Below the pieces are notes generated by a model that saw only the letters and a program-made list of their open reading frames with translations, searched no databases and was not told the DNA's origin. Position numbers and translations under genes: made by a program. Positions 17,229 through 33,251 of a DNA stretch of 64,000 nucleotides are shown here, in pieces. Source of the stretch: Mycobacteriales bacterium (GTDB lineage Bacteria > Actinomycetota > Actinomycetes > BP-191); contig DASVPJ010000041.1 of NCBI GenBank assembly GCA_036382875.1, forward strand, positions 2,505 to 66,504, in the 5' to 3' direction. Position 1 is the first letter of the stretch. Every line of letters starts with the position of its first letter.

Positions 17229-18457
17229 CCGCCGACGCGCTCGTGCGGGCGGCGTTGCTGGCCCGTGGCAGCGTTGCGCTGCGCGCGGCCCCGCCCGTCG
17301 AGCGGGTGCTCCGCGCGCGGTCACCGCGCGCGCTCGCCCGGGCCGCCCTCGTGCCCGCGGGGCGGAACCTCGGCATGGCGATCGCGATGCTGCCGGCCGG
17401 CCAGCGGCACGAGGCCACCGCGGCGTTCCTGGCCTGCCGGGTGCTCGACGCGTTCGAGGACCTCGGCCCCGACCCGGTGGCCGGCATCCACGCCGCGGCG
17501 CGCTACCTCACCGGCTCGTCACCGGCCATGCCCGCCGCCGGCACGCTGCGCGCGAGCCGGCCGTCCGAGCACCTCGACCGCGCGCTCGCCGTCCGCATCG
17601 ACCTCGTACGCGCGCTCGTCACCTCGCTCGACGCCGACCGCGGGCGGCGCGTCGAACGCCTCGTCGCCGACGTCGCCGCCGCGATGGCCGCGCACGCCGG
17701 CCGGCAGGAGCGGCGCGCGTACGGCGGCGACGTCCTCGGCCGCGCCGTCGCGTACGCCGGCGAGGTCGTCACCGACGAGGCCGGCGACGACGGTCCGGCC
17801 GACCGCGGCGTGCACCGCGCCGTCGGCTACCTGCTGCAGCTCGCCAACGACCTCCGCGACGACACCCGCGCGCCGTACGGCGCGGACTCCGCCGAGGAGC
17901 TGCGCTACGTCGTCTTCCTGTCGTCGCTGACCGGGTCGCTCGCCGCGCTGGACCTCGTCAGGTCGCTCCACCGCCGGGCCGCGAGCTGCGGCGGCCGCGT
18001 CGCGGTCGCCGCGATGATGCTGCACACGACCGCGTACTTCTGCCGTGCCGCCGGTGTGCGGCCGCCCGTCCCGCGCCGCGCGCGGCTCCTGCGCGCCGTG
18101 CTGGCCGCGCGCGGCGAGCGGCCGTTCGAGCGGCTCTGCCGCCGCGTCGAGGTCGCCGCCGACGCCTGCCTCAACCGCACCGTCACCGCGGCCGGCGCCG
18201 GCGACGACCTCGTGCTGTTCACGGCACCCCGCGGCACGACCGGGCGGGGCGTCGCCGCGCTGGCCGTCGACGCGGCCACCCACCTCATGGCGCCGCTGCC
18301 CGCCGGCCCGTTGCGCGGCCCGCTGCCGCCCGCGCAGGTGCGGGCCATGATGCTCGCCGACCACGTCGTACTCGACGCCGTCGAGCCGACGGACGACGGC
18401 GACACCGGCGACCTGCGCGAGCTCGCCGACCTCCTGCAGCGGGCGGCGGCGTCGTGA
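17225..18457 (+). CDS. Squalene/phytoene synthase family (head-to-head isoprenoid synthase-like) protein
   Basis: GTGA-coupled start; class-1 isoprenoid synthase fold signatures with atypical first motif (FLACRVLDAFEDLG) and second motif YLLQLANDLRDD. Confidence 0.6.
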   Translation: MTADALVRAALLARGSVALRAAPPVERVLRARSPRALARAALVPAGRNLGMAIAMLPAGQRHEATAAFLACRVLDAFEDLGPDPVAGIHAAARYLTGSSPAMPAAGTLRASRPSEHLDRALAVRIDLVRALVTSLDADRGRRVERLVADVAAAMAAHAGRQERRAYGGDVLGRAVAYAGEVVTDEAGDDGPADRGVHRAVGYLLQLANDLRDDTRAPYGADSAEELRYVVFLSSLTGSLAALDLVRSLHRRAASCGGRVAVAAMMLHTTAYFCRAAGVRPPVPRRARLLRAVLAARGERPFERLCRRVEVAADACLNRTVTAAGAGDDLVLFTAPRGTTGRGVAALAVDAATHLMAPLPAGPLRGPLPPAQVRAMMLADHVVLDAVEPTDDGDTGDLRELADLLQRAAAS

Positions 18458-19470
18458 CCGCCGTCACCGACGTCCGCCCCGCTCCGCCGGCGGTCCCGCG
18501 CGCGTTCCCGCGCCTCGAACGCCTCGCCGAGCGCGTGCTGCGCGTCGAGCGCGGCGCCAACGTGTTCCCGATCGGCCACGTGCTCTGCTACGTCGCGCTG
18601 CTCGCGTCGTGCCTCAGCCCGTTCGGCCCCCGCGCCTGGTGGACCGCCGCGCCGGCGATCGTGCTGCTGACGTTGCTGAACTACTCGGCCACCGTCGGGG
18701 TGCTGCACATGCACGCGCACCGCCCGCTGTTCGTGTCCAGGCTGCCGAACCGGCTCGCCGACCTGGTCTGCTGCTTCCCGTGCATGCTCAGCGCCACCGA
18801 GATGCGCGTCATGCACGTGTCGCACCACCACCGGTTCGACAACGGCCCGCGCGACGTCACCTCCACGGTCGGCTACGAGACCGGCGGCCGCGCGGTCTGG
18901 TACTGGCTGCGCTTCCCGTGGCGCGTGAAGGCCGCCTGCGTGGACGAGATCCTGCGGCGCGCGGACTCACCGGCGCGGCGTACGCGGCGGCGGCAGCTCC
19001 TGTTCGACGAGGCGGTCGTCATCGGCACGGTCACCGCGCTCACCGTCGCGTGGCCGTACCCGATGCTGGCGTTCTACTGGCTGCCGTTCGTGCTGACGTT
19101 GCTGACGAGCGGCTACTTCGCCTGGCTGACGCACGCGCCGGCCACCGGGCGGGCCGGCGACAGCGCCTCGATCAACACCGTCGGCAACGTCCTCAACTTC
19201 TTCGTGTTCAACCAGGGCTTCCACAGCGTCCACCACCGGTACCCGGGGATCCACTGGACCGAGATCCCGGACAAGCTCGCCATCCTGCTCGACGTGGACG
19301 ACGACGTGGTCGTGTCGTACTGGGTGACGCTCGACACCGCGTGGCGCATCGCGGCGCCGGAGCGCTTCCGCGAGCCGGAGTTCGGCGCGGCGTGGAAGCG
19401 GCGCCTCGCCGCGCGGCTCGCGACCGGCTCGTGCCGATCGAGGCTGCTGCCGTACTTCGTCAAGGTGTAA
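18454..19470 (+). CDS. Membrane fatty-acid desaturase/carotenoid ketolase-hydroxylase family di-iron enzyme
   Basis: GTGA-coupled start; three His boxes (HMHAHR, HVSHHHRF, HSVHHRYPGIHW) and several TM helices. Confidence 0.8.
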   Translation: MTAVTDVRPAPPAVPRAFPRLERLAERVLRVERGANVFPIGHVLCYVALLASCLSPFGPRAWWTAAPAIVLLTLLNYSATVGVLHMHAHRPLFVSRLPNRLADLVCCFPCMLSATEMRVMHVSHHHRFDNGPRDVTSTVGYETGGRAVWYWLRFPWRVKAACVDEILRRADSPARRTRRRQLLFDEAVVIGTVTALTVAWPYPMLAFYWLPFVLTLLTSGYFAWLTHAPATGRAGDSASINTVGNVLNFFVFNQGFHSVHHRYPGIHWTEIPDKLAILLDVDDDVVVSYWVTLDTAWRIAAPERFREPEFGAAWKRRLAARLATGSCRSRLLPYFVKV

Positions 19471-19555
19471 CGCGGCGCGCGCGTGCACCGCAGCGGGGTG
19501 GGGGAGGACACTCCGTGCGACCTGCCCGACCCGACCCCGCGAAGGTGACCAGACG

Positions 19556-19735
19556 ATGAAGAAGACGCTGCGGCTGTCCCGCGAGGAGCTTCGCGAGCTC
19601 ACCGCCCCCGAGCTCCAGGACGTGCAGGGTGGCACCCACCCGTTGATCACCGACGGCCACCACTGCTTCGGCACGACGCTCTGCGCCGGCCTCTCGTTGC
19701 CGACCGCCTGCGGCGTGCTCACCATCGACTGCTGA
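19556..19735 (+). CDS. RiPP-like precursor peptide (59 aa): leader MKKTLRLSREELRELTAPELQDVQGG plus Cys/Thr/Ser-rich core
   Basis: Not in ORF track (59 aa). ATG with AAGGTGA SD 7 nt upstream; 57 of 59 codons G/C-ending; class II lanthipeptide-like ELxxL leader ending GG; core THPLITDGHHCFGTTLCAGLSLPTACGVLTIDC has 4 Cys. Confidence 0.5.
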   Translation: MKKTLRLSREELRELTAPELQDVQGGTHPLITDGHHCFGTTLCAGLSLPTACGVLTIDC

Positions 19736-19766
19736 CGGGGCAGCGGACCTACGGTCTTGGCGCACG

Positions 19767-19851
19767 GCGGAGAGGGACAGGCCCGAGCGGGAAGCCCAGG
19801 TCAGACGGGTGCGCCGCCAGGGACTTGAACCCCGAACCCGCGGATTAAGAG
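19767..19851. repeat. attL: 85-bp direct repeat of tRNA-Lys 3' half plus 3' flank
   Basis: Near-identical (2 differences) to 28985..29070, which overlaps the intact tRNA-Lys; covers anticodon loop to acceptor 3' end plus about 35 bp. Confidence 0.7.
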
Positions 19852-20158
19852 GCAGGGCTACTACGTCCGAGGCAGTCCGGGGTAGTTGGTGACACCCCGC
19901 CTGACCTGCGACTTTGCGGAAGGCCGTGTCGTCGCAGTTCGGCACATCCGGGCTTGTCCGGCACCGCTTGTTATCGCAGTGTTAGCGCACTCATCGCGAT
20001 CGCGGGCGGCGCGGCCCGGGTCGCCCAACCGCGCCACAGGTCGTCGCGGCGCCGCGTGCGTAGGGTGTGCCCTTGAGGGTGAGCGGGTGGCGCATCAACG
20101 CGTATCATGCGATGACGAGGTGGCTTCTCGTTACGGGTAGTGCGATCGGGGGCAAGCC

Positions 20159-20533
20159 TTGTTCAGAAAAAAGAGCCGCGCTCGTGAGGCGTCGGGCGAG
20201 TCTTTACGAACCATTGAAAAGCTTAACCCACTGTACTATGAGCGGGTACAGGGCCGGCTTCGTCTTTGGGACGCGCCGGATGCGTCCATCGAGAACGCTG
20301 CGACGAGCACGGCGAACGCGATCTTCAACGTGGCGATGAATTACTTTGGCCGACTCGGTGACGACCGCGCCGGGCGAGCCTTCGCTCTACAGTTCGAAAA
20401 ACGTGTCGCGGGCGACCTGACCGTCGCGGACAAGATGATCGATCAACTCATCTCGTACGACGCTGACACTCAGGAGTTTCTTACGACTCTGCTCCAGCGC
20501 TTGGAGGATCTCGCAGGTCGCCCGCCCACCTAG
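20159..20533 (+). CDS. Hypothetical protein (island cargo)
   Basis: TTG start; mixed AT-ending codons typical of the island; 124 aa; no recognised domain. Confidence 0.4.
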   Translation: MFRKKSRAREASGESLRTIEKLNPLYYERVQGRLRLWDAPDASIENAATSTANAIFNVAMNYFGRLGDDRAGRAFALQFEKRVAGDLTVADKMIDQLISYDADTQEFLTTLLQRLEDLAGRPPT

Positions 20534-20878
20534 ATCGCACGCTGTTCTCGTGCTCCGTTGAATACCAACCTGAGCGAACGTGCCCGCGGCGAGCTCGGTG
20601 TCGATGCGGCATTAAACGCCAGCGCCTCGGCGGATCGTCTCACCGGCCTGCGGCTGAACGTCCTGCCGCTCGCGTCGCGCCAGTCGTACAGGTAGCCGCG
20701 GCCGCGCGGCGGATGCGAGGCTGGAGAGCGCGGGGTCGTGCCATCGACGGGTCGTCTCGTCGTCGGGCGACGACGTGAAGATGAGGATGCGGCGCACCCG
20801 CCGCAGGTCCGGCCGGGTTGCCAGCAATCCGCCACATCCGGCCTCAACGCGATGTTGAACGCCCCGCTCCGGGGAGCA

Positions 20879-20996
20879 AGCCGCAGGTCAGACGGGTGCG
20901 CCGCCAGGGACTTGAACCCTGGATCCGCGGACTTAAAGGCAGGGCAACTTCCGAGGCAGTCCGGGGCAGTTGGTGACAACCGCCTGACCTGCGGTT
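20879..20996. repeat. Degenerate internal copy of the att/tRNA-3' repeat plus conserved island-internal flank
   Basis: Shares caggtcagacgggtgcgccgccagggacttgaaccc with the att repeats and, after a diverged stretch, gcagggc...gaggcagtccgggg.agttggtgaca..cgcctgacctgcg with the island side of attL (19852..19910). Confidence 0.5.
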
Positions 20997-21481
20997 TGCC
21001 CCGTCGGATGTCGCCGTATAGCACGAACTCCGGATACGTCTGTTGGCCATGCTAGCGCTGCTAGCACGCGAGGACGTGGTGCCGACCAGTCGACTCATCA
21101 GGGCGGCGCCTCAGCAACTGCCTCGACCGCCGACGAAGACGCACCTCTGGCGTGCCGGCCCGTTCAGTCGTCCCGCCGACCCGCGCCCCAGGTCAGTCAA
21201 TCTACGATCTTGAGGCTGCTGAAGCGCATCATGTACAACGGTCGCTGTCTTCGTCGTTTGCCGCTCCTGCTCAAGGGCGCTGCGTCGATGCCGCGACGCC
21301 GAGAGGACGGATCCCTCACCGCCCACGGTCTCGACGTCGCGTGTACCACTGACGACGCCTCCCACGCCGAGGGGGCTTACCGCCCTCGCCCTCCGCATGG
21401 ACCTGGGACGAGGCGATCAACGGACTGACAATGAAGTCGGAACATTCCGAGCATTGAGCCTGACTGAAGTAGGCTCGGGCC

Positions 21482-22588
21482 ATGGCACTTCGTCCTACCA
21501 TCTTCATCGGATCCTCTGCGGAGGGAGAGCTCCTGGCGAACCAGCTTCAACTCAACCTCAGCAGGACGTGTCGACCTGATGTCTGGAGCCAGGGAGTCGT
21601 TCGCGTCGGCTCGGCAACACTGCAAAGTCTCGTAGACGCAAGTCATCGGTACGACTTTGCTGCCCTCCTTCTTACACCGGACGACGTTATAGAACAGCAT
21701 GGCGAAACTGGATTCGCTCCGCGTGACAATGTGATCTTTGAAGCCGGTCTGTTTGTCGGTGCGCTGGGCCCGGGCCGCACGTTCTTGGTGCATTGCCGTG
21801 AAGATGTGCTCAACCTCCCATCTGATCTCCTCGGAGTCACCATGGCCACGTATGACCGGCCAAGCCCAGGGGACAACTTGGAAGCGATCATGGGTCCGCC
21901 CGCCACGAAGATCATGAACGCGATTCAGCATGTCGAGTCAACAGGAGTTGGCCCGAACTACCTGACTGCCTTCAGTGCGTTGGCGCGCGAAGTCCCAAGG
22001 GATGAGCTAGTCAGGATCATCACCGAAGCTAGCGCGCCCAGTGATATGCGCTCGCCGCTTAGTCCCGTAGCCTTGCGGACCTTGGAGCGAGAACTTGAGT
22101 CCAGGGGCCACAGTCGGGATCGCGAGCTTACCCGCGACGATCTGCGGCCAGAGATCCGTAAATATAATGATATTCGAGAGACGACGATTCCGGGTGTTAG
22201 CCGAACGAACAGGCTGGAGGAAACCCTCGGAGAGATAGAGTATAAAGCCCTACGCCAGAAATATCCGGCAAGTCTCACCGCGGAACTACTGGACGGCGCC
22301 GATGGGGACAGAGTGGCAGGCCTCGTTCTAGCTCGCGTAAGGCCCGACAAAGAGAACTTCGACGCAGTGTTGCGCATAATAGAGACGCCTCGGTCGAACT
22401 ATGAGCATGCCAAGGCCATTGAGACAATGATACAGATGAAGAAGTCAGACAAACTCACAGATGACCAGGTGCGGGCTGCCCGACGCGTTGCTGAAGAATT
22501 GCTCGACAAGCGTGTGACGCTAATAGTGGACGGCGACCCCAGCCGGGTTGTGTTGGTCGAAACACTTGCGAGAGAGCTCAATCGGTGA
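21482..22588 (+). CDS. TIR-like (PF10137/COG4271-type) nucleotide-binding domain protein with uncharacterised helical C-terminal domain
   Basis: N-terminal signature (TIFIGSSAEG...DFAALLLTPDDVIEQHG...RDNVIFEAGLFVGALGPGRTFLV...LPSDLLGV); AT-ending codons; C-terminal 230 aa with no recognised motif. Confidence 0.7.
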   Translation: MALRPTIFIGSSAEGELLANQLQLNLSRTCRPDVWSQGVVRVGSATLQSLVDASHRYDFAALLLTPDDVIEQHGETGFAPRDNVIFEAGLFVGALGPGRTFLVHCREDVLNLPSDLLGVTMATYDRPSPGDNLEAIMGPPATKIMNAIQHVESTGVGPNYLTAFSALAREVPRDELVRIITEASAPSDMRSPLSPVALRTLERELESRGHSRDRELTRDDLRPEIRKYNDIRETTIPGVSRTNRLEETLGEIEYKALRQKYPASLTAELLDGADGDRVAGLVLARVRPDKENFDAVLRIIETPRSNYEHAKAIETMIQMKKSDKLTDDQVRAARRVAEELLDKRVTLIVDGDPSRVVLVETLARELNR

Positions 22589-22778
22589 GAGCGCCGCGGC
22601 GCCGCTCTGCGACAATCGGAACGAGCGTGCCGCCACGATGCAATCAGGGCGCGCCCATCGGTGCTGTACCTAGCGAGTTCATGCAGGCCGGTTGGTTGCC
22701 CGGAAGATGTCGGTACTGTGGCTGAAAGCGGACGACACACTCGAACGCGCGGACCCTCACCCCGGGTCCGGATGACTC

Positions 22779-23843
22779 TCAGCGGCTAGCAGCTAGCCGG
22801 TCACGCATCTCACGTGCGGCCGTCTTCCAGTCCTGCTCCGCCGACACGCTGAGGCACCGATCGAGGAGCCGCCGGGCGACATCGTTGAGCTCGGCCTCAC
22901 GAATCGCTTCCTCGACAGCGATGAGCGCCATGGCAAGCCGACGTCGCGTGCCCTCCTCGGCGAGCGTCAGATGCTCGAACGCGCGAACGGCGCCGGCGCG
23001 GTCGAGCTGGACCAACGCTGGCACGAGCCTTCGTGGGATGCCCACGTCATCGGCATTATTGGCGACCTCGACGGCGCGGATCAGGAACTCGTCCCCGACG
23101 GGTGCGCGTACCAACCGGGGCAACGTGTCGAACGCAAGCCGTTGAACACCTTGCTCTGATGATTCGAGCAGCGCAAAGACGTCGTCCTCGTCTAACCCGC
23201 CCCGATCGGCGAGCAGCCGGATCGCGCGCTTGCGCGGCCCCTTGTCCTCAAGCTCGTCGGTCGCCAGCTCGACCAGTCGCTGGACGTCGGATGCCGACAG
23301 TTTGTCGGCATCGGCGACGGTGAGACGCAGCGCCGTTCGCACGTTGCGCTGCTGCACCAGCCGCATGCCGGCCTCGAAGAGGCCGCCGAGCTGCTCGCGG
23401 ATCTTCTGCTCGAAGGTCGCCGGAGTGAATGGTGCGACGGTCAACTGCCAGTCGTACTCGAGGGACCGGAGCACCTGGGTCATTCTACGGTCGCTCGGGT
23501 CGGTCACCCCGTCCAGGCTGCGCAGCTCGTTAAGGATGCGGTATTTCGCGTACGTGGCGTCCAGGCAGAGCACGAGGAACGGCGTGCCCGCTTGCAGCGC
23601 CGTGTCGAGTTCGGTGCGCCAGGTGAGGTCGCCGTAGTCCTCCACGACGACGAAGACGCAGATGTCCGCGTCGAGGACCGACGCACGGGAGTTGGCCTCG
23701 AACCGCGCGCCGACTGCGTTGCTGTACGTGATCGCGCCCTGGAGGTAGGTCATTGGCTGGCCGCCGACGTCACGAACGACCCGTTCGAAGTGTTCGAGTA
23801 CATTGCGCGTGTCCGCTGCGCCGCAGAGCATGATTCGGAGCAT
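22779..23843 (-). CDS. DUF4062-domain protein with C-terminal HEAT/ARM-like repeats
   Basis: ATG 23843 after GGGGG SD; DUF4062-like N-terminus (ADICVFVVVEDYGDLTWRTELDTALQAGTPFLVLCLD); helical repeats in C-terminal half; convergent with the TIR-like gene, with hairpin terminators between. Confidence 0.65.
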   Translation of the reverse strand: MLRIMLCGAADTRNVLEHFERVVRDVGGQPMTYLQGAITYSNAVGARFEANSRASVLDADICVFVVVEDYGDLTWRTELDTALQAGTPFLVLCLDATYAKYRILNELRSLDGVTDPSDRRMTQVLRSLEYDWQLTVAPFTPATFEQKIREQLGGLFEAGMRLVQQRNVRTALRLTVADADKLSASDVQRLVELATDELEDKGPRKRAIRLLADRGGLDEDDVFALLESSEQGVQRLAFDTLPRLVRAPVGDEFLIRAVEVANNADDVGIPRRLVPALVQLDRAGAVRAFEHLTLAEEGTRRRLAMALIAVEEAIREAELNDVARRLLDRCLSVSAEQDWKTAAREMRDRLAASR

Positions 23844-24225
23844 CTGACCCCCAACTGCTTCATCGTCCGAACGCACGTTACCGGCGACCGCGTTGGCGTG
23901 TCAGTGGGAGGATTGGCCCTCAGCCCTCAACCGCGTCGCGCGACGGCGGGTGCTAGCCGCTCGCGCCGACTCCCGCGCGGCCGAGCGACCGGATGCACTT
24001 AACGAGGTATCCCAACAGGCAACAATCGAGACATTGCCCTCTGCGCGGCGCGTACCATTCGGCACCTAGCGGCTGTGCGGCGAGCGCAGTGGCTCCCATA
24101 GTCGGACGGTGCAGAGGGTCCTATTACACCGACCTTGCTGCGGGTTCGCGACTTCGGATGCCGCCGGGCTTGCCTGCGGATCTGATTGCAGCAGGTGACT
24201 CATTAAGCGTCGGGTCGGCATAATG

Positions 24226-24504
24226 TTAGTCGTCGCACGCCTTGCGGATTGCGTCAACGAACGGCAGATCCTCGTCCTTCGTGTCGTCACTCAAAGACTC
24301 GAACGGCCGAATGGCGTCGTGTTCGCGGCCGCTTGACTCCATCCATGCCGCCCATGCGTCATGCACATCGGCGGCAGTTACGGCCGCGCCCTTTGCGCGC
24401 GCGAGTACGGCATACATCAGGAACAGACTTGTTGATTCTGCTGGAATAAGAGCTTCCGGTACTTGTGAGCGGATCTTGTCCGCGAGGTCTGTGATGTAGC
24501 TCAT
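24226..24504 (-). CDS. Small hypothetical protein (92 aa), third gene of TIR operon
   Basis: ATG overlaps stop of upstream membrane-protein gene (ATGA); acidic C-terminus; no recognised domain. Confidence 0.5.
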   Translation of the reverse strand: MSYITDLADKIRSQVPEALIPAESTSLFLMYAVLARAKGAAVTAADVHDAWAAWMESSGREHDAIRPFESLSDDTKDEDLPFVDAIRKACDD

Positions 24505-24998
24505 CGGACAACCAGATACGTTGCCAGCACGAGATAGACTACCCCGAATGCGACCGGCGTCACTTGCTCGATGAAGCCGAGCTCGGCGTAGCGATCGCGC
24601 CACTTGAGCTTGGTCGGAGGGTCGGTGTTCGGCCTCAAGACGACCCACTCGTCCACGAACGGACGCACCGTGAAGTGGTCCTGTTCGATGCGGTTGATCA
24701 CGGTGAACTTCGCTGAATTCAACTTCCGATAACTCCGGAGAAGGAGCCACCAGGCGCCGGCGAGAAGTACTCCAGCAAAGGCTGCAACCACGAGAACGAA
24801 CCGGTCAGGTGCGGCCTGGCCGCCGCTGTCGCTGACCCTTGTGGCAAAGAGCGCAAGACCGGCAACAAGGCCGGTCTGCAAGGTCAGAAAGAAGCTGTTC
24901 GCCGAGGCTCGCCTTGCGGATACCCGATCCGCCATCTCAACCGCAAGCGAGTACAACGCGAGAACTGTGGCCTCGGAACTAGCGGCTGGGACAGTCAT
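24501..24998 (-). CDS. Multi-TM membrane protein (about 165 aa), candidate effector (SLATT-like?) of TIR operon
   Basis: ATG 24998 one nt after TIR gene stop (alternative GTG 25013); TM helices FFLTLQTGLVAGLALFA, FVLVVAAFAGVLLAGAWWLLL, VTPVAFGVVYLVLATYLVV; AT-ending codons. Confidence 0.6.
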   Translation of the reverse strand: MTVPAASSEATVLALYSLAVEMADRVSARRASANSFFLTLQTGLVAGLALFATRVSDSGGQAAPDRFVLVVAAFAGVLLAGAWWLLLRSYRKLNSAKFTVINRIEQDHFTVRPFVDEWVVLRPNTDPPTKLKWRDRYAELGFIEQVTPVAFGVVYLVLATYLVVR

Positions 24999-24999
24999 C

Positions 25000-25419
25000 T
25001 CAGCGCGAGCCACCGATAAGTAGCTTCAGATTGTCCCAGGTCCAGTTATACATCTTGTCGGTTGACTTGGCGGAGGTGGGGCGCGTGCAGGTTCCGGTGG
25101 CCCGCCCACGTAGCAGGAAGTACGACTTGCCTTCCTCCTGGGCAATCGATACTTCAGCGCTGACTCCGGTGGCGGTGTGCGTGTGGTGACCGCACAGCAC
25201 TACAACCTGGTCGACGCCCTTGATCCGTCTCCGCGCGCGCGACCGCCAATCAGGCGACGCTTCTTTGATGGACATGTCAACTACCTCGAATGGCGAATCC
25301 GAGTTCTTTGCCTGGCCAATCAGCAAGGTCTTGAGATCACTGTCGTTGTCATAGTCGAAACTTACAAACACCCGTGTCTTCGCCACGCCTCTCCCCTGTC
25401 TGGTGCTGTACATACCCAT
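25000..25419 (-). CDS. TIR-domain protein, ThsB-like (DUF1863/MTH538 TIR-like)
   Basis: RVFVSFDYDNDSD...VVVLCGHHTHTATGVSAEVSIAQEEGKSYFLL matches ThsB/DUF1863 pattern (vFfSFhy.D...LIG..T..s.WV..EI); AT-ending codons; start ATG 25419 (TTG 25443 also possible). Confidence 0.7.
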   Translation of the reverse strand: MGMYSTRQGRGVAKTRVFVSFDYDNDSDLKTLLIGQAKNSDSPFEVVDMSIKEASPDWRSRARRRIKGVDQVVVLCGHHTHTATGVSAEVSIAQEEGKSYFLLRGRATGTCTRPTSAKSTDKMYNWTWDNLKLLIGGSR

Positions 25420-25884
25420 CGGCCCTGGCGTCCGATCCGGCAACGACTGATGCCATAACCTATCGCACTAGCTTGTACAGATCGTTCGATGTTCGTGCGC
25501 AGCCGGGTGTCGGCTGGGACGAGACGCCGCCGACACTTCAGCGTGAGTGTGAGCGTCGGTGTGCGGGGGCGAGAGCGGCGTGGGCCGCGCGCCTCGCGGG
25601 CAGGCCGTTCTTGCCTGCCCGCTCTTCCTGTCCGTAGGGGCCGTAGAGGCTCCGAGGTCAAGGGCCGCCGGGGGCGGTCGCGGAGCGACGCGCGAAGCGC
25701 GCCCTTGAGCTTGGAGGGGCGGCCCCGCAGGATGCGCGGCCCGGGGCGCTCGACCGGACGTGCCCGGCTTGCGGTGTACTCCTGTGGACAAGGCGGGGCC
25801 GGCGGCGAGTTCTCCACAGATTCCGTTCGGCCTCTTGCGGGCGCTTCGGCGGTCAGGTGAACTTCAACGATGGTCCATGATCGC

Positions 25885-26127
25885 TCACTCGATCTGATCG
25901 AGACGTCCCATGAGTTGGCTCGGCTTCACGTCGAGCGCTCGGGCGAGGCGCACGACGATCGCGACGGTCGGGTTGCGGCGGCCGGTCTCGATCTCGGAGA
26001 GGTACGCGACGCTGATCCCGGCGCGCTCGGCGCAGACCGGCTGCGTGAAGCCGCGGCGGTGCCGCAGTTCGCGCACCCACAGGCCGAGCGCTTGGCAGAG
26101 CCGCTCGTCCAGATCGTCGGCTGGCAT
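25885..26127 (-). CDS. XRE-family (Cro/CI-type) HTH transcriptional regulator
   Basis: HTH pattern LRHRRGFTQPVCAERAGISVAYLSEIETGRRNPTVAIVVRLARAL; divergent from phage-like genes at 26192. Confidence 0.7.
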   Translation of the reverse strand: MPADDLDERLCQALGLWVRELRHRRGFTQPVCAERAGISVAYLSEIETGRRNPTVAIVVRLARALDVKPSQLMGRLDQIE

Positions 26128-26191
26128 GGACCCGCATCGTACGGACGCGCCGCACTTCGCGGCGGTCCACCCACGACCACGGGAGGACGGC

Positions 26192-26530
26192 ATGACGCAG
26201 ACCATCGTTGACGAGATCGACCGCACGTTCCTGCTGCTGCGCGTTGCGGCAGCCCGCGACGACGGCGCGGACGAGGCGACGGGGACGCGCTGGTGCGCGC
26301 ACGTGTGCGACCCGGCGAGCCCGCTCGCGGGTCTCTACGCCTTCGCGGACACCCTCGCCGAGGCGCGGGACGCGGTGACGGTCCTGGCGTGGACGGCGGT
26401 ACTCGCGGGCGAGCTGCTGCCGTTCGGCTACACCGCCGACGACCTGGCAGGCATCCACGTCGCGGTGACGACGACCACCCCGTACGACGCCGCCTGGCTC
26501 AACGCCGCAGTCGCGAACGACGCGGCGTAG
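26192..26530 (+). CDS. Hypothetical island protein
   Basis: ATG after GGGAGGACGG SD; GC3-rich; 112 aa, no recognised domain. Confidence 0.5.
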   Translation: MTQTIVDEIDRTFLLLRVAAARDDGADEATGTRWCAHVCDPASPLAGLYAFADTLAEARDAVTVLAWTAVLAGELLPFGYTADDLAGIHVAVTTTTPYDAAWLNAAVANDAA

Positions 26531-26542
26531 GTAGGAGGCGCC

Positions 26543-27028
26543 ATGACGACACAGATCGACGGCTGCCGGCCGCACCTGACCAGCGACCGCGCGGACGAGT
26601 CGTACTCCTCCTGGGTCGGTCGGGCGCGGTGCGCCGGGTGGTCGGACGTGTTCGGCGACGAGAGCAGCAACGACGAGGCGCTGGCGCTCTGCGGGGCGTG
26701 CCCGGTGCTGCGGCAGTGCCGCCGATGGGCGCTGCGCACCGCGGTGGACGGCGTGGCCGGCGGCATGACGTCCGCGGAGCGCGCGGCGTGGCGGCGCGAG
26801 CACGGCGAGCCGGAGCCGGTCGTGAGCGTCGAGGACTTCCTGCTGACCGAGGTGGTCAGCGCCGACCGGACGTGGGGCCGTGGCCGCTCCGAGGCGATCC
26901 TCAACGCGGTAGCACGCTGGACCGACGACGGACACACCGCTCGCGAGATCGGCCTCCGGCTCGGCGTCACCCGACGCACCGTGAACAGGCTCCGCGCTAC
27001 CTGCCGCGAATGCCGACTCATCGCCTGA
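26543..27028 (+). CDS. WhiB-like (Wbl) Fe-S transcription factor with extra C-terminal HTH
   Basis: Cys motif C...C..C....C (CAGW...CGACPVLRQCRRWAL), GVAGGMTSAER turn; C-terminal AREIGLRLGVTRRTVNRL; typical of actinophage/AICE regulators. Confidence 0.75.
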   Translation: MTTQIDGCRPHLTSDRADESYSSWVGRARCAGWSDVFGDESSNDEALALCGACPVLRQCRRWALRTAVDGVAGGMTSAERAAWRREHGEPEPVVSVEDFLLTEVVSADRTWGRGRSEAILNAVARWTDDGHTAREIGLRLGVTRRTVNRLRATCRECRLIA

Positions 27029-27130
27029 CCCGACCCCGTTCCTCGACCTCTGCTGTTCTCCCGACCCCTTCGTCTCTTCTTCTTCGCTTCTCTCCTGATG
27101 TTGTTGATCTTGTTGCTGACCTGATCCGCT

Positions 27131-27338
27131 CCACCCCGCTGACCTGCCCTCCCTTCTCCAATGTGCGTGTCGAGGGAGTGCCACATGTTCGGGGGTGCGA
27201 AGCAGCCCCGAACATGTGGCACGACCGACCCCCGGCGGAGTGCAAAACCGCAGGTCAGCGGGGTGGAGCGGCCTCCGAAAAAGATCTTCGAGGGTGGTTC
27301 CTCGGGTGGTGCCTCGGTGCGTGGACCGAGGCACCACC
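27131..27338. promoter_or_regulatory. Cluster of strong nested palindromes upstream of xis-int (candidate regulatory/recombination-accessory region)
   Basis: 17-bp inverted repeat ccaccccgctgacctgc (27131-27147) and gcaggtcagcggggtgg (27250-27266) enclosing a perfect 17-bp stem hairpin (27178-27222); a further 14-bp stem hairpin at 27305-27338; contains CTGACCTG also present in att core and att-adjacent arms. Confidence 0.5.
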
Positions 27339-27475
27339 CTGAGCGGGTCCCCGGTTACGAGAACTTCACGGAGATCTCACCGCCGTGGTAACTCGGCCGT
27401 GAACCTTTCGTGAAGTCCCGAGCCGACCGTCCCCCCACGTCCCGGTAGCCCGGGACGGGCGAGAGGAGAGCCACC

Positions 27476-27745
27476 ATGAGCGCCATCGACCCGGCGTCGT
27501 TGCCGCCCGTTCTCGACGTCCCCACGGCCGGCCGGCTGCTCGGACTCGGCCGCTCCGCGGCCTACGACCTCGCCGTCGCCGAGCTCTGGCCGACGCCGGT
27601 CCTGCGGCTCGGACGGCGGCTGCGGATCCCGACCGCTCCGTTGCTGGCGCTTCTCGGCCTCGACCCTGGTCCGCTGTCGCAGTCCGGTGGCATGGTGACC
27701 GGGTCACCAACTGCCCCGGCTGCCTCCGAAGGAGGCAGGCCATGA
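27476..27745 (+). CDS. xis: Excisionase/Xis-family HTH DNA-binding protein
   Basis: GAGAGGAGAG SD; MerR/AlpA-like HTH (LDVPTAGRLLGLGRSAAYDLAVAELWPTPVLRLGRRLRIP); stop overlaps integrase ATG (ATGA). Confidence 0.7.
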   Translation: MSAIDPASLPPVLDVPTAGRLLGLGRSAAYDLAVAELWPTPVLRLGRRLRIPTAPLLALLGLDPGPLSQSGGMVTGSPTAPAASEGGRP

Positions 27746-28974
27746 CGAAAGAGTCGGGCGTGTACCAGCGGCACTCACGGCGCTGCCCGCGCAACGCGGG
27801 CGGTCGTGGCTACGCGCCGCACCGGTGCACCGGCACGTGGTCCTACGTCATCGACGTGGGCCGGGACGCCAACAACGAGAGAAGGCAGGAGACGAAGGGA
27901 GGCTTTCCGACCAAGCGGGAAGCGGTCGAGCAGCGGCGCAAGCGTCTCGGCGAGCTGAGGTCGCGGACGGGCGAGGCGTACGGGACGACGGTCGGCGCGT
28001 ACCTGGAGCAGTGGCTGTCGTGGAAGCGCGGCCTGCGGGACAGCACCCGGCTGTCCTACCGGCAGCACCTGGACGACTACCTGGTCCCGGCGCTTGGGCA
28101 GTACCGGCTCGCCGACCTGGAACGTCGGCCGGAGCTGATCGAGCAGATGTTCTCCAACCTCGTCACCGGGGTCAGCGGCAAGCCGTTGTCGCCGGCGTCG
28201 GTGCGGCGCATCTACTCGACGCTGCGCAGCGCGCTCAACAGCGCGGTGAAGCGGCGGATGCTGGCGCACAACCCGGCGTTGCACGTCGAGCTGCCGCGGA
28301 CGGCGCTGTACCGGCCGGTCGTGTGGGACGCGCAGCAGGTCGGCATCTTCCTCGACGCGATCCAGGGCCACCGGCTCTACGCGCTCTACGGCGTCGTCGT
28401 CCTGACCGGACTCCGGCGCGGCGAGGCGCTCGGGCTCCGGTGGGAGGACGTGGACCTGGACGAGGGCGTGCTGCACGTACGCCAGCAGGTCGTCGCGGTC
28501 GGCACGGAGGTCCGCATCGGCCCGCCGAAGACGAAGGCGGGGGAGCGGACGGTCGCGCTGTCCGAGGCGACCGTGGCGATGCTGCGCGAGCACCAGGCGC
28601 GGCAACGGCGCGAACGGCTCGCGTGGGGCGAGGCGTGGCACGACAGCGGCCACGTGTTCACCTACGAGGACGGCCGGATGCTGCGGCCGGACCACGTGAC
28701 GCACCTGTTCCGCAGGCTGGCGAAGGAGGCGGGGCTGCCGCTGATCCGGCTGCACAACCTGCGGCACACCAGCGCGAGCCTCGCGCTGGCGGCGGGCGTC
28801 CCGATGAAGGTCGTCAGCGACCGGCTCGGCCACTCCAGCGAGTCGATCACCTCGGCGCTCTACACGGTCGTCGTGCCCGCTGTGGCACGCGAGGCGGCCG
28901 AGCGGATCGCCAACGTCGTGCTGCTGCCGAGGGCACGGAGCGACGAGCACGAAGCCGTGTTAGCGCGGCGTTAG
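27742..28974 (+). CDS. int: Tyrosine-type site-specific integrase
   Basis: C-terminal catalytic region (LRRGEALGLRWEDVD, HNLRHTSASLALAAGVPMKVVSDRLGHSSESITSALY); adjacent to tRNA-Lys and attR. Confidence 0.9.
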   Translation: MTKESGVYQRHSRRCPRNAGGRGYAPHRCTGTWSYVIDVGRDANNERRQETKGGFPTKREAVEQRRKRLGELRSRTGEAYGTTVGAYLEQWLSWKRGLRDSTRLSYRQHLDDYLVPALGQYRLADLERRPELIEQMFSNLVTGVSGKPLSPASVRRIYSTLRSALNSAVKRRMLAHNPALHVELPRTALYRPVVWDAQQVGIFLDAIQGHRLYALYGVVVLTGLRRGEALGLRWEDVDLDEGVLHVRQQVVAVGTEVRIGPPKTKAGERTVALSEATVAMLREHQARQRRERLAWGEAWHDSGHVFTYEDGRMLRPDHVTHLFRRLAKEAGLPLIRLHNLRHTSASLALAAGVPMKVVSDRLGHSSESITSALYTVVVPAVAREAAERIANVVLLPRARSDEHEAVLARR

Positions 28975-28984
28975 CGCATGACCG

Positions 28985-29070
28985 GGAGAGGGCCAGGCCC
29001 GAGCGGGAAAGCCCAGGTCAGACGGGTGCGCCGCCAGGGACTTGAACCCCGAACCCGCGGATTAAGAGTC
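28985..29070. repeat. attR: direct repeat overlapping 3' half of tRNA-Lys
   Basis: Partner of 19767..19851. Confidence 0.7.
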
Positions 29071-29099
29071 CGCTGCTCTGCCAATTGAGCTAGCGGCGC
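29027..29099 (-). tRNA. tRNA-Lys (anticodon CTT), CCA not encoded
   Basis: Minus-strand cloverleaf GCGCCGC-TA-GCTC-AATTGGCA-GAGC-A-GCGGA-CTCTTAA-TCCGC-GGGTT-CGGGG-TTCAAGT-CCCTG-GCGGCGC-A; 73 nt. Confidence 0.85.
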
Positions 29100-29181
29100 G
29101 TGGCGCAGACTCTACACGACCTTCCGCCGGGGCCGCGCGCGCGTTACCGTCGTACGTCTGGCCAGCGGAGGGGCGGGGATC

Positions 29182-30150
29182 GTGCTGCGCGTACGGCGGT
29201 CGGTCGCGGCCGGGGTGGCGATCGCGGTGCTCGGCGTGCCGTGGGCCATCGCCGCGCCGCAGGAACGCCCCCTCTGCCTCGACCCGGTGATCGCCTGCCC
29301 GAAGCCGCCGCCGCCCGAGCCGGACCCGGTGCCGAAGCCGGACACGAGCGCGTACCGGGGCCTCGGCACGTGGGTCGACGCGTACGACTTCGCGCGCGAG
29401 TTCGGCAACGCCACCACGCGGCCGAGCGCGGTGGACGAGATGGCGCAGCAGGGCGTGAAGACGCTCTACATCCAGGCCGCGAAGGACCGCGACGGCGTCG
29501 GCGACCTGGCCAGCCCGGACCTGCTCGGGCAGTTCCTCGAACGCGCCCACGCCCGGCGGATGAAGGTGATCGCCTGGTACCTGCCGCGCTTCCTCGACCA
29601 GGAGCGCGACTTCCGCCACGTGAAGGCGATGCTCGACTTCCGCTCGCACGGCCACGCGTTCGACGGCGTCGGCATCGACATCGAGTCGCGCGAGAACGGC
29701 GACGTGAAGCAGCGCAACGACCGCCTCGTCGCGCTGTCGCAGCGGGTGCGCAAGGCGGCGGGCATGCGCAGCGTCTCGGCGATCGTGGTGCCGCCGGTGG
29801 TGACGGACGTGATGAACCCGAAGTTCTGGCCGGACTTCCCGTGGAGCCGGATCCGGAGCAGCTACGACGTCTGGGTCCCGATGGGCTACTGGACCAACCG
29901 CAAGCCGGACAGCGAGTACCGCGACGCGTACCGCTACACGACGGAGAACGTCCGCCTGCTCCGCGAGAACCTGAACGACCCCAACGCCGTGGTCCACGTC
30001 GCCGGCGGAGTCGGAACCAAGGCGACGAGCAGGGACTACGAACGCTTCGTGCTGGGCGCCCGCGACAGCCGCAGCGTCGGGCTCTCCGTCTACGACTGGG
30101 CGGTCACGGCGCGCAGCGCGTACCCGATCCTGCGCAAGGGGCCGAGCTAG
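29182..30150 (+). CDS. Secreted hypothetical protein (possible glycoside-hydrolase-like TIM-barrel)
   Basis: GTG after GGAGGGGCGGGG SD; signal peptide; GC3-rich; Pro-rich linker then about 250-aa domain. Confidence 0.6.
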   Translation: MLRVRRSVAAGVAIAVLGVPWAIAAPQERPLCLDPVIACPKPPPPEPDPVPKPDTSAYRGLGTWVDAYDFAREFGNATTRPSAVDEMAQQGVKTLYIQAAKDRDGVGDLASPDLLGQFLERAHARRMKVIAWYLPRFLDQERDFRHVKAMLDFRSHGHAFDGVGIDIESRENGDVKQRNDRLVALSQRVRKAAGMRSVSAIVVPPVVTDVMNPKFWPDFPWSRIRSSYDVWVPMGYWTNRKPDSEYRDAYRYTTENVRLLRENLNDPNAVVHVAGGVGTKATSRDYERFVLGARDSRSVGLSVYDWAVTARSAYPILRKGPS

Positions 30151-30155
30151 CCGCG

Positions 30156-30497
30156 TTACGCGCCGTGCAGCGCCTCGTCGCGGGTGTCGTAGACCGGCAG
30201 CTCCTGGTCGAGGTGGGCCAGCACCAACGCCGGCCGCACCGGCGACGACGGCGGGCACGCGACGCGCAGCGAACGGTGGTGCTCGTGCGCGAGGTCGCAG
30301 CCGCGCCGCAGCGCGCGGACGCCGCCGGCGAGCAGCGTGCCGCTCTCGGTGAGGTCGACGACGACGTCGTAGCCGTCGCGGGCGACGAGCCCCGCGATGG
30401 CGCCGCTGACGGCCGGAGCGCTGCGTGGCGTGAGGTCACCCTTCACGATGAGCAGCGCGACACGGTTGTCCTGGTCCAGGTCGATGTCGACGCTCAT
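30156..30497 (-). CDS. STAS-domain protein (anti-sigma-factor antagonist-like)
   Basis: ATG 30497 after GAGGCGG; SpoIIAA-like pattern (VDIDLDQDNRVALLIVKGDLTPRSAPAVSGAIAGLVARDGYDVVVDL). Confidence 0.7.
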   Translation of the reverse strand: MSVDIDLDQDNRVALLIVKGDLTPRSAPAVSGAIAGLVARDGYDVVVDLTESGTLLAGGVRALRRGCDLAHEHHRSLRVACPPSSPVRPALVLAHLDQELPVYDTRDEALHGA

Positions 30498-30596
30498 CAC
30501 GACCGCCTCGGGTAGCGCGCACGGACTAGTAACGCACTAGTCATCGGCCCACCGGAAGGGGGTCTGAACGGATCAGCCGGGAATCACCCGGTTGGC

Positions 30597-31334
30597 TCAA
30601 CGCGGCAACGGCCCCGGCATGCCGAGCAGCCGGCCGCGCCCGAGCGTGGCGCCGAGCGCGGTCGCGGCGGAACGCCGCTGCTCGGTGTCGACGCCCAGCG
30701 CGATCACCTCGATGCCGCGGCGGCCCGCGAGGTCGAGCATCGCGCGCACCCCGTCGGACACGGCGCCGGAACGGCCGGGCCGGTCGAGGTCGAGCTTGAC
30801 GACGTCGGGGCGCACCTGGTCGAGCAGCCCGAGGGCGCCCGGAACGTCCGCCACGTCGTCGGCGACGATCCGCCACCCCCAGCCGCGGAACTCGTCGATG
30901 CCCGAACGCAGCGCCGCCGGGTCGGCGAACGCGTGCGCCGGCACCTCGGCCGCGACCTTCACGGAACGCCGCCCGCGACCCCAGGAGGTGGCGAGCCGCG
31001 GCGGGCACGCGCTGCCGTACGTCTCCGGCTCAGGCGTGATCCACATCTCGACGTCCACGCCGCGCTCGAGGTACTGGTCGAACGCGAGGCAGCGGAACGC
31101 CCAGTCCAGCCGCTCCACGAGGCCGAGGCCCTGGGCCGACTCCAGCAGCGCGAGCGTGCTGTTCAGCTCGGTGCCGGCCTGGCCGCGACCGGTCGCCTTG
31201 TAGCCGACGAGCGTGTCGTCGTCGAGCCGGCGGACGGGCTGGAAGTCGGGGCCGAGCTGCTCGGGCCGCTCGATGAGCCGCTCGATGAGGGCGCGGTCGT
31301 TGCGGAGCTTCTCCACGGAGTTCAGCAGGGACAT
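30597..31334 (-). CDS. EAL-domain protein (c-di-GMP phosphodiesterase-like, possibly degenerate)
   Basis: C-terminal EAL-type blocks (IVADDVADVPGALGLL, DVVKLDLD, IEVIALGVDTEQ). Confidence 0.65.
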   Translation of the reverse strand: MSLLNSVEKLRNDRALIERLIERPEQLGPDFQPVRRLDDDTLVGYKATGRGQAGTELNSTLALLESAQGLGLVERLDWAFRCLAFDQYLERGVDVEMWITPEPETYGSACPPRLATSWGRGRRSVKVAAEVPAHAFADPAALRSGIDEFRGWGWRIVADDVADVPGALGLLDQVRPDVVKLDLDRPGRSGAVSDGVRAMLDLAGRRGIEVIALGVDTEQRRSAATALGATLGRGRLLGMPGPLPR

Positions 31335-31360
31335 GCAGGTGGTCTCGGCACGAATGCCGT

Positions 31361-32395
31361 TCACCCTGAGAGCGCCGCCGTCCGCCGGCCGATCGCGGGC
31401 ACGAACTTGAAGCCGTGCCCCGAGCACGGCGAGCAGACGACGAGCGCCCCGTGGCGGCGCAGCACGAACGACTCGTCCGGCGTCGTCGTGTACAGGCACG
31501 AGTCCGCGCGGGTGGCCCGCGGCTCGGCGCCGGGCAGCCACTCGGCGGCATACTCCTCGACCCGCCGCACCGCGGCGGCGTCGACGCCGAGCCGCGCGTC
31601 GGGCGTCACCGGACGGCCGCTGCCGTGCTCGCCGACCTTGACGCCCTCGCCGGGCGCGCCGAGGCCGTAGTACGGCACGCCGTCCGCGCGGTGGTGGATC
31701 CACGACGGCCAGGCCGCGTCGCTCGGCAGGTAGACCGGCTGCTCCTGCGTGACCCGGAACGGCGGCAGGTCGTCCGGCACCGGCAACGACGCGAGCAGCC
31801 CCGGCAGCCACGCGCCGGCCGCGACGACGGCGACCCGCGCCTCGTACTCGTCGCCGGTGTCCGTCGTGACGGCGACGCCGTACGACGTCTCGCGCGCGGC
31901 CACGGCGGTCACGCCGAACCGCACGTCGGCGCCGTGCCGCGCCGCCTCCGCGTGCAACGTCTCCACCGCCGCGTCGGCGTCGAGCCGCCCGGCGTCGGGC
32001 TGGTGCACGACGTCGGAGGAGAACCGCAGCGCCGGCCACCGCTCGGCCGCCGCCGCGGCGGCCAGGCGCTCGTACGGCAGGCCGTGCGCGCGCAGGTTCG
32101 CCTCGATGTCGTCGACCGCCACGCCGTGGTCGACGCCGCCGGTGACCTGCAGCAGGGACGCGCCGCTCTCGCGTTCGAGCAGCCGCCACAGGTCGTACGC
32201 CTCGCGGGCCATCGCGACGTACGAGCCGTCGGCGTAGGCGAGCCGGAAGATGCGCGAACGGCCGTGCGAGGAGCCGTGCACGTGGTGCCCGGGGTGGCGT
32301 TCGAGCAGCGTCACGTCGCGCCCGGCGCGGGCCGCCCACCAGGCGGTCGCCGAGCCCATCGCGCCGCCGCCGACGACGAGCAGGTCCGTACGCAT
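31361..32395 (-). CDS. FAD-dependent oxidoreductase (sarcosine/N-methyltryptophan oxidase SolA-like)
   Basis: Rossmann dinucleotide motif DLLVVGGGAMGSATAWWAA; C-terminal pattern ending CSGHGFKF. Confidence 0.8.
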   Translation of the reverse strand: MRTDLLVVGGGAMGSATAWWAARAGRDVTLLERHPGHHVHGSSHGRSRIFRLAYADGSYVAMAREAYDLWRLLERESGASLLQVTGGVDHGVAVDDIEANLRAHGLPYERLAAAAAAERWPALRFSSDVVHQPDAGRLDADAAVETLHAEAARHGADVRFGVTAVAARETSYGVAVTTDTGDEYEARVAVVAAGAWLPGLLASLPVPDDLPPFRVTQEQPVYLPSDAAWPSWIHHRADGVPYYGLGAPGEGVKVGEHGSGRPVTPDARLGVDAAAVRRVEEYAAEWLPGAEPRATRADSCLYTTTPDESFVLRRHGALVVCSPCSGHGFKFVPAIGRRTAALSG

Positions 32396-32508
32396 CGCGG
32401 GCAGGCTACGGCGCCGCGCGCGGCGAATGCTTGACCCGGAGCCCGTTCCGCCGGTTTGCTCCACCTCTGCCCGAGATGCCCGGTCGACCCCTCTGCAAGG
32501 AGACCCTC

Positions 32509-32736: not shown

Positions 32737-32762
32737 CCTCGCCTCACCCAAGGAGACCCGGC

Positions 32763-32975: not shown

Positions 32976-33004
32976 GCCCCGTTCTGCGAAGGAGCCCCTC
33001 CGTG

Positions 33005-33238: not shown

Positions 33239-33251
33239 CCCGCAACCGTGC

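Follow-up and report, generated by a model that had tools for sequence, protein, structure and literature searches.

The window analysed here, a stretch of 64,000 nucleotides on contig DASVPJ010000041.1, very probably carries a composite integrative island of ~9.3 kb (19769-29068) which entered the 3' part of a tRNA-Lys(CTT) gene by site-specific recombination in an uncultured Frankiaceae-like actinobacterium. It is best understood as an integrative defence island that has no relaxase, sits in a heavily used tRNA-Lys hotspot and contains the relic of an older element. Islands of this kind are already known; the family of the present one, marked by two conserved structured DNA/RNA signals, is undescribed.

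The tRNA-Lys(CTT) gene (29025-29099, minus strand) is the single tRNA gene in the window, found by ARAGORN and as the only Rfam match (RF00005 tRNA, 66.8 bits). The GC fraction is 0.62 in the cargo, 0.71 in the backbone and 0.74-0.77 in the flanks, in agreement with the lower-GC cargo reported in the first-pass annotation of this DNA. The host, judged from the flanks, lies near Frankiaceae metagenome-assembled genomes (MAGs). The sequence of the window is found within JGI metagenome contig Ga0334905_000008 and also in one ENA assembly; the sole difference between the two is at window position 36673, outside the island.

Attachment sites and integrase

The island is bounded by a direct repeat in which copy A (19769-19851, 83 nt) and copy C (28985-29068, 84 nt) are identical in 82 of 84 aligned columns, differing by one substitution and a 1-nt indel. 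Each outer attachment (att) core consists of the 3' 44 nt of the tRNA, stopping exactly at the 5' edge of the anticodon loop (...GATTAAGAG), and 40 nt from downstream of the tRNA. The tRNA-bounded repeat of the first-pass annotation is real, with coordinates ~2 nt off at two ends; its description as the 3' half of the tRNA plus about 35 bp of flank holds for the duplication of the 3' tRNA part, the measured lengths being those given here. Strand exchange would take place in the anticodon loop.

The cores are accompanied by arms of the P and P' type. Tandem GTTAGCG, placed at the integrase stop codon in attL, is found again in the P' arm; this holds for the window and for the related locus L027, and the layout of attL is the same in four relatives (L026, L044, L027 and L028). 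The P' arm beside copy A (arm A) shares 81% identity with the attR arm of L027 (934-1063); the integrases of the two elements are 82% identical. At the same place the arm motif switches with integrase subfamily: the ~65% subfamily carries two copies of GTGACCGC and the 52% subfamily two copies of GTGCACAAA. As a change of motif pair with integrase subfamily is the behaviour expected of arm-type sites, the tandem GTTAGCG in both arms probably represents arm-type sites of the integrase. A further motif, CAGGTCAG, is present in ten copies in the window compared with 1.4 expected, and nine of the ten lie within the island. Each of the three cores has one at the tRNA 3' end, each P' arm has one in inverted orientation, another lies at 21189, just within the end of the cargo, and the palindrome described below holds the remaining three. 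The 30-bp box of the P' arms (19864-19893 and 20948-20977) is also repeated in inverted form at 27701-27731, at the 3' end of the xis open reading frame (ORF) and just before the integrase start; an inverted box before the integrase start is likewise found in L026 and L027.

The integrase next to the intact tRNA gene is itself intact. All of the catalytic residues R225, K263, H338, R341, H364 and Y374 are present, as judged by motif alignment to PDB 3nkh, and the ratio of non-synonymous to synonymous change (pN/pS) is 0.12 in comparison with the 97% identical integrase of L026; the integrase is under purifying selection. Its identity does not exceed 35% with any integrase of the phage collection, or about 41% with any of the plasmid collection. 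Beside its relatives (11 in number) a tRNA gene is always found on the opposite strand, 50-100 bp away, and the target changes with identity: tRNA-Lys(CTT) at 96-97%, tRNA-Arg(ACG) at 81-82%, tRNA-Ser(TGA) at 64-66% and tRNA-Lys(TTT) at 52%. The 89-aa ORF upstream of the integrase, a putative excisionase, is 79-90% identical in L026, L027, L029 and L042 and 43% identical in L040-type elements. Its HTH_17 match spans the whole domain and is sub-threshold, and it matches PHROG 32619 (3.6e-8), a family of unknown function. Of the xis-int pair that had been placed beside the intact tRNA, the integrase is secure and the excisionase call is weak.

It has to be asked whether the island can still move. 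A fixed island, that is a domesticated defence locus in which att sites and integrase merely persist, would agree with the lack of direct evidence for excision, with the relics and scars that make decay a common outcome at this site, and with the lack of transfer genes. This reading is nevertheless unlikely: the six catalytic residues and the low pN/pS point to a maintained integrase, no difference between the outer cores falls in the presumed overlap, and neither arm has lost its arm sites. Moreover, the 97% identical integrase of L026 is found in a different genomic context, at tRNA-Lys(CTT) with a right flank unrelated to that of the window. Its position in an unrelated flank and the tandem junction in L044, described below, count for mobility of the integrative island.

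The inner att copy and the tRNA-Lys hotspot

Inside the outer repeats lies a third, decayed att core (copy B). Of its six mismatches, three fall in the segment of the anticodon loop, where the identity of copies A and C stops. Behind copy B comes another P'-type arm that is partly decayed (arm B), 88-91% like arm A and 87% identical to L027 941-1009, over 69 nt only. Copy B is preceded by the truncated 5' end of an integrase of another type. At the nucleotide level this fragment is 86% identical to L004 9491-9796, where the integrase gene that L004 carries at this tRNA-Lys begins, and its peptide similarity is divided over two frames; the L004 integrase is only 30% identical in protein sequence to the resident integrase. 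As a foreign truncated integrase stands beside a decayed att copy, the segment from A to B is a relic of an older resident with the other integrase type. The hotspot has been used repeatedly and the island is composite. The 40-nt non-tRNA part of copy A is P-arm-like and absent from the naive site in L099, which suggests a still earlier resident. At present the outer pair, A with C, would be competent for recombination and copy B would be dead, because arm A keeps the full motif set, core A equals core C through the loop, and copy B is degenerate.

The first-pass annotation had proposed one simple element of this size. An integrase-made insertion of ~9.3 kb is upheld, and the simple structure is not. 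In its strongest form the simpler reading holds that a single 9.3-kb element lies between the 85-bp repeats and that the inner att-like copy is a meaningless internal duplication. It has in its favour that copies A and C are near-identical and both accompanied by full arm motifs for the resident integrase, so that the island may now act as one element. It is, however, rather improbable, since an internal duplication would not make a foreign integrase fragment: the frameshifted 5' end adjoining copy B resembles the L004 gene and not the resident one. That tandem arrays occur is moreover shown by L044. Past a 96% identical integrase, a P arm and a core in that locus (899-1258), the match to the tRNA breaks off at the nucleotide where copies A and B do so too, and the tandem GCCAGCA of the other integrase type follows. 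Two element types are joined in tandem there, in the order opposite to that in the window.

The composite island was further compared with related genomes, the check proposed in the first-pass annotation. One locus with both flanks and the tRNA and without the island, L099, was located via a homologue of the left-flank fatty-acid desaturase. It answers the ground for refutation named in that annotation. L099 7303-10990 matches window 15754-19482 (83% nucleotide identity) and L099 13510-17163 matches window 29024-32722 (77%), with tRNA-Lys(CTT) at 13509-13586. Between these flanks are 2.5 kb of unrelated genes, with no integrase, island gene or arm motif. A same-strain empty site was not found; exact-protein look-ups with the integrase and flanking genes returned the source contig and one near-identical ENA contig only. 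The closest relative, L004, carries another element at this tRNA. An independent clean example is provided by L027, where a perfect 44-nt repeat of the 3' part of tRNA-Arg bounds ~10.4 kb and the distal P' arm is homologous to arm A.

Two other loci, L005 and L100, were considered as naive empty sites and rejected, both keeping P-arm-like scars and no integrase. The scars (L005 7314-7374 and L100 3900-3970) consist of GTTAGCG or GCTAGCG with CAGGTCAG and lie directly downstream of tRNA-Lys(CTT). Scars from which the integrase has gone indicate that residents of the tRNA-Lys site decay by deletion.

Backbone, conserved cis elements and cargo

The backbone of the island comprises a gene for an XRE-family regulator, orf112, a WhiB-like gene, the palindrome region, xis and int. 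It is common to L026, L029, L042 and L027, and to L004 with a different integrase. The WhiB-like and XRE regulators named in the first-pass annotation are borne out by Pfam. The XRE gene, for which the JGI call is shorter (25885-26127, 80 aa), is divergent from orf112 and from the gene encoding WhiB with its helix-turn-helix (HTH). The orf112 protein is found in 74 clusters, all from Frankiaceae/Mycobacteriales MAGs or soil, and no relatives were found in phages (50,697 records), plasmids or IMG/VR. Its AlphaFold2 (AF2) model has a predicted local distance difference test (pLDDT) score of 90.7, with weak matches to HicB-like folds. An NCBIfam match of orf112 to a 'tail tube' protein was dismissed (E = 0.0027, far below cut-off).

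No relaxase was found in the island by tblastn with the Replic_Relax proteins of L027 and L004 or by Pfam scan, and the Pfam scan of island ORFs of 50 aa or more found no coupling protein, VirB4-type ATPase or FtsK/SpoIIIE-like domain; the island is non-conjugative, as had been supposed from its size. Nor was a replication initiator of the RepSA, RepAM or prim-pol type found in it with Pfam, PHROGs or NCBIfam. Among the relatives, L027 and L004 carry a pilin-like gene and a Replic_Relax protein beside the palindrome, Replic_Relax being a relaxase of the MOB_C class (PMC5357655; PMC12857230). L040-type relatives carry GntR, NUDIX, a TrwC (MOB_F) relaxase-helicase and an NlpC/P60-SLT hydrolase. 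As the relaxases of these relatives act on single strands, the lineage descends from single-strand, type IV secretion system (T4SS)-type conjugative or mobilisable elements, and the window element, like L042, has lost its relaxase. It would not transfer itself. It is probably moved either in trans by related conjugative elements which share the palindrome, the structured element and the same tRNA, or by co-excision in tandem arrays, that is by accretion.

The first-pass annotation had likened the island to the remnant of an actinomycete integrative and conjugative element (AICE). A remnant of the pSAM2/SLP1 type without its transfer and replication genes would account for the actinobacterial host, the integration at a tRNA 3' end, the int-xis pair and the long att identity, and in L040 the GntR (Kor-like) and NUDIX (Pif-like) genes stand beside xis-int. 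Against this, neither FtsK/SpoIIIE-like Tra, Rep, NUDIX nor GntR genes, nor fragments of them, are present in the island. Those relatives that do have transfer genes carry Replic_Relax/MOB_C, TrwC/MOB_F, a T4SS-pilin-like gene and an NlpC/P60-SLT hydrolase, which indicate a T4SS-type system and not the double-strand TraB system of AICEs. The likeness was therefore not sustained, and descent from an AICE is very unlikely. Scarcely credible is a phage satellite or cryptic prophage remnant packaged by a helper phage: the small size, int-xis, XRE and WhiB genes (common in actinophages, with PHROG hits), defence cargo as in many satellites and the occurrence of the TIR/8xMP/DUF7701 cassette inside prophage L103 are outweighed by the lack of capsid, terminase, portal, primase and packaging-redirection genes in the island, by an orf112 without matches in the phage records or IMG/VR, by the distance of the integrase from phage integrases and by the relaxases of the relatives.

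Two structured signals are conserved in the relaxase-less island and its relatives. The first, a nested palindrome of 146 bp (27126-27271), has outer arms of 22 nt that match perfectly (27126-27147/27250-27271) and inner arms of 21 nt (27178-27198/27202-27222). The palindrome region contains its three CAGGTCAG copies and is kept, with compensatory changes from arm to arm, in L026, L029, L042, L027 and L004; in L027 and L004 it is directly upstream of the operon of the pilin-like and Replic_Relax genes. Together with its repeats the palindrome is a candidate origin of transfer (oriT), by analogy with its position there.

The second signal is a non-coding element of ~180 nt with a multi-helix fold, for which Alifold gives -62.4 kcal/mol on the plus strand compared with -42.0 on the minus strand. 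In the alignment 96% of cells are paired compared with 41-54% in slid controls, and there are 20 covarying pairs compared with 2-5. None of 500 shuffles reaches the observed values, and the minimum free energy z-score is -4.4. A covariance model finds one copy per element in nine loci and none elsewhere in 0.78 Mb, and Rfam gives no match for it. It is common to relatives with MOB_C, with MOB_F or with no relaxase, so that a relaxase-specific nic site is unlikely; the leading ideas are a single-strand origin or a regulatory RNA.

The cargo is defence-like, in keeping with the defence-island character suggested in the first-pass annotation: it includes TIR proteins and a cassette of ThsB-TIR, 8xMP and DUF7701. 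The 368-aa TIR protein matches the TIR effector (4.8e-38) and PycTIR (2.4e-27) models of PADLOC and, below its cut-off, the Cap12 model of NCBIfam (2.1e-25). In the cassette, Pfam assigns TIR PF08937 (2.4e-8), 8xMP PF24838 (4.5e-36) and DUF7701 PF24792 (2.7e-31), and PADLOC gives a weak ThsB match (2.1e-4); the NCBI family name of 8xMP is 'RipA family octameric membrane protein'. The three genes recur in the same order, with overlapping stop and start codons, in three further, independent contexts: L103, L105, whose first cassette gene has no Pfam hit on record, and L107/L108, two contigs of one gene neighbourhood. In a fourth context (L101/L102, one neighbourhood) 8xMP is found without the other two genes, beside a type IIG restriction gene. 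Neither 8xMP nor DUF7701 matches a PADLOC model or a solved structure, and a literature search on 8xMP, DUF7701, RipA or the three-gene cassette returned nothing relevant. An 8xMP frameshift in the ENA assembly was rejected: the one assembly difference lies outside the island, and the short 8xMP call is consequently a gene-calling artefact.

No model for ThsA (SIR2 or Macro/TM with SLOG) was matched in Pfam or PADLOC, the neighbours of ThsB-TIR being 8xMP and DUF7701. No cyclase (CD-NTase or PycC) was found in 19769-29068 with Pfam, PADLOC or NCBIfam, so that the TIR effector-type domain stands alone. Lacking ThsA and a cyclase, the cargo is neither canonical Thoeris nor CBASS/Pycsar. By analogy with such systems, the TIR genes would protect the host from phage by NAD+ depletion or membrane damage. 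A 365-aa protein between them is predicted to have an alpha/beta N-terminal part and an all-helical repeat C-terminal part; a single-sequence AF2 model was discarded (pLDDT 46.6). Related elements also appear to carry defence-like cargo. In L027 (1097-1974 and 4936-5679) this consists of HTH with DUF6932 and a second Cap12-type TIR protein, in L042 (1591-2817) of a DndB-like protein, and in L004 (6802-8420) of HTH-Peptidase_M78 with DUF4411.

Several points weigh against the reading of the locus as a mobile, composite defence island. No excised circle or empty attB from its own population was seen, both assemblies being identical over the island, and the attP-type junction and arm-box patterns had no match in IMG/VR. 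The unoccupied relative L099 is only ~80% identical and has a Cupin, a 411-aa protein and a methyltransferase in place of window 19483-19768; with these different genes it is an unoccupied relative and not a precise empty site. The better arm A sits distal to the relic, which leaves the order of the A and B events ambiguous. The excisionase is assigned weakly, from position, size and HTH_17 (E = 0.11). Finally, that the island is mobilised in trans, that the palindrome serves as oriT and that the cargo acts in defence are all proposed by analogy.

Outside the island, a 59-aa Cys-rich peptide with an 'ELQDVQGG' double-glycine-like leader is encoded between the desaturase and attR (19556-19735, plus strand). 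It is absent from the syntenic L099 and L100 and could be the precursor of a ribosomal peptide. To the right of the island (32490-33240, 33420-34880 and 40490-40940) are tandem paralogous small ORFs of 70-86 aa and a family of ~155-aa paralogues, detected as self-matches; these arrays are kept in L004 and L099.

Table 1. Features of the island in the window, with copies of the structured element and of the cassette at other loci.
Feature	Locus	Position	Strand	Details
attR core, copy A	Window	19769-19851		Displaced tRNA-Lys 3' part (19808-19851) and 39 nt P-arm-like flank; CAGGTCAG at 19797; 82/84 columns vs 28985-29068
P' arm (arm A), resident integrase type	Window	19852-19995		30-bp box 19864-19893; inverted CAGGTCAG 19901-19908; tandem GTTATCG (19970) and GTTAGCG (19981)
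Orphan ORF, 124 aa	Window	20159-20533	+	No match in Pfam, PADLOC, PHROGs, NCBIfam; called as gene in JGI record
Relic: truncated, frameshifted 5' end of second-type integrase, and P arm	Window	20575-20883	-	Integrase part about 20575-20830; GCCAGCA-type motif at 20820
Inner att copy B, decayed core	Window	20884-20938		49/55 identical to cores A and C
Arm B, second, partly decayed P'-type arm	Window	20939-21075		30-bp box 20948-20977; CTGACCTG 20984; degenerate GCTAGCG/GCTAGCA at 21051, 21060
368-aa protein: N-terminal Cap12/PycTIR-type TIR, uncharacterised C-terminal ~220 aa	Window	21482-22588	+	Pfam PF10137 1.5e-25
365-aa protein, function unknown	Window	22779-23876	-	No match in Pfam, PADLOC, PHROGs, NCBIfam; GC at third codon positions (GC3) 0.81
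Cargo operon	Window	24226-25413	-	ThsB-like TIR 25000-25413, then 8xMP 24501-24998, then DUF7701 24226-24504
Conserved structured non-coding element, ~180 nt	Window	25575-25757	+	Candidate non-coding RNA or single-strand DNA signal
XRE-family HTH regulator	Window	25885-26226	-	Pfam HTH_31 3.7e-15, HTH_3 8.7e-13; kept in L027, L042, L004
orf112, conserved backbone protein, function unknown	Window	26192-26530	+	55-72% identical in L026, L027, L029, L042, L004
WhiB-like protein with C-terminal HTH	Window	26543-27028	+	Pfam Whib 1.2e-10, HTH_23 1.9e-4; PHROG WhiB 2e-13
cis region	Window	27126-27420		Upstream of xis; nested 146-bp palindrome, hairpin 27300-27339, YTCACG/CGTGAA repeat cluster ~27364-27414
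Putative excisionase/recombination directionality factor, 89 aa	Window	27476-27745	+	Overlaps int start by 4 nt
Tyrosine integrase, 410 aa, arm-binding domain	Window	27742-28974	+	Pfam Phage_integrase PF00589 3.9e-24, Arm-DNA-bind_4; PHROG_1 integrase 3.9e-79
attL	Window	28955-29068		P arm with tandem GTTAGCG (28959, 28970) over int stop codon; CAGGTCAG at 29014; core copy C 28985-29068
Intact tRNA-Lys(CTT), integration target	Window	29025-29099	-	ARAGORN; Rfam RF00005 66.8 bits
Structured element copy	L042	7721-7906		
Structured element copy	L004	3568-3754	-	
Structured element copy	L027	6473-6651		
Structured element copy	L040	7975-8158		
Structured element copy	L036	7214-7399		
Cassette	L103	4663-5809		Prophage
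Cassette	L105	3618-4797		Beside another integrase
Cassette	L107	3615-4770		Beside AbiEii
Cassette	L108			Beside AbiEii

Significance and comparison with known systems

A tRNA-integrated island with an integrase is in itself routine. Of wider interest is the picture of a hotspot in uncultured Frankiaceae-like soil bacteria, with two integrase types on one tRNA-Lys, tandem pile-up and decay to scars; pile-up and decay of this sort are raw material for accretion and for the exchange of modules between elements. The switch of arm sites and of tRNA targets (Lys-CTT, Arg-ACG, Ser-TGA and Lys-TTT) with integrase divergence offers a natural series for studies of specificity. Two tractable targets for experiment are the covarying structured element and the TIR/membrane-protein cassette, which is found repeatedly on prophages and islands and for which no function has been described. 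A bolder reading, possible and no more than tentative, is that the elements form an undescribed actinobacterial relaxase-less family which parasitises T4SS-type integrative and conjugative elements (ICEs) at the same tRNA hotspot, that the ~180-nt element is a new functional RNA or single-strand DNA signal, and that the cassette is a new Thoeris-like defence with a membrane effector. If so, the structured element could be, for example, a single-strand origin used after conjugative entry.

Mobilisable genomic islands (MGIs) of Vibrio are relaxase-less integrative elements mobilised by ICEs of the SXT/R391 family. The window island resembles such relaxase-less integrative and mobilisable elements (IMEs) in having its own integrase and a (here putative) directionality factor, in inserting at a specific site, in lacking conjugation machinery and in carrying adaptive defence cargo. 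As in relaxase-less IMEs, conserved cis sequences are shared with larger, relaxase-bearing relatives, and the island is found in tandem with such relatives at one att site. Unlike the Vibrio MGIs, it has an actinobacterial host, a tRNA target and an unrelated backbone (XRE, orf112, WhiB, palindrome and structured element), and its oriT is only a candidate. The classes of IME are those of Coluzzi et al. 2017 (PMC5357655). Placed against T4SS-type ICEs, the island has neither the relaxase, the coupling protein nor the VirB4-type ATPase by which these are recognised.

With AICEs of the pSAM2, SLP1 and pMEA300 type the island shares the actinobacterial host, integration at a tRNA 3' end, a long identity segment, tRNA-proximal int-xis and a comparable size (9-24 kb). 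It differs from them in lacking FtsK-like Tra, Rep, Pif and Kor, and its relatives use MOB_C or MOB_F rather than double-strand TraB; NUDIX Pif-type and GntR Kor-type genes are present only in the distant relative L040.

The integrase resembles those of the lambda type in its N-terminal arm-binding domain and in the tandem repeats of the P and P' arms that co-vary with subfamily, and the end of core identity at the anticodon loop is like that of other integrations in tRNA anticodon loops. An extra CAGGTCAG motif at the tRNA 3' end, in the P' arm and in the distant palindrome sets it apart from the lambda type. In its cargo, the island is like Thoeris, CBASS Cap12 and Pycsar PycTIR in having a ThsB-family TIR and a Cap12/PycTIR-type TIR domain on a mobile element. 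Unlike those systems, the ThsB-like gene is coupled to 8xMP and DUF7701, and is accompanied by neither ThsA, a CD-NTase nor a pyrimidine cyclase.

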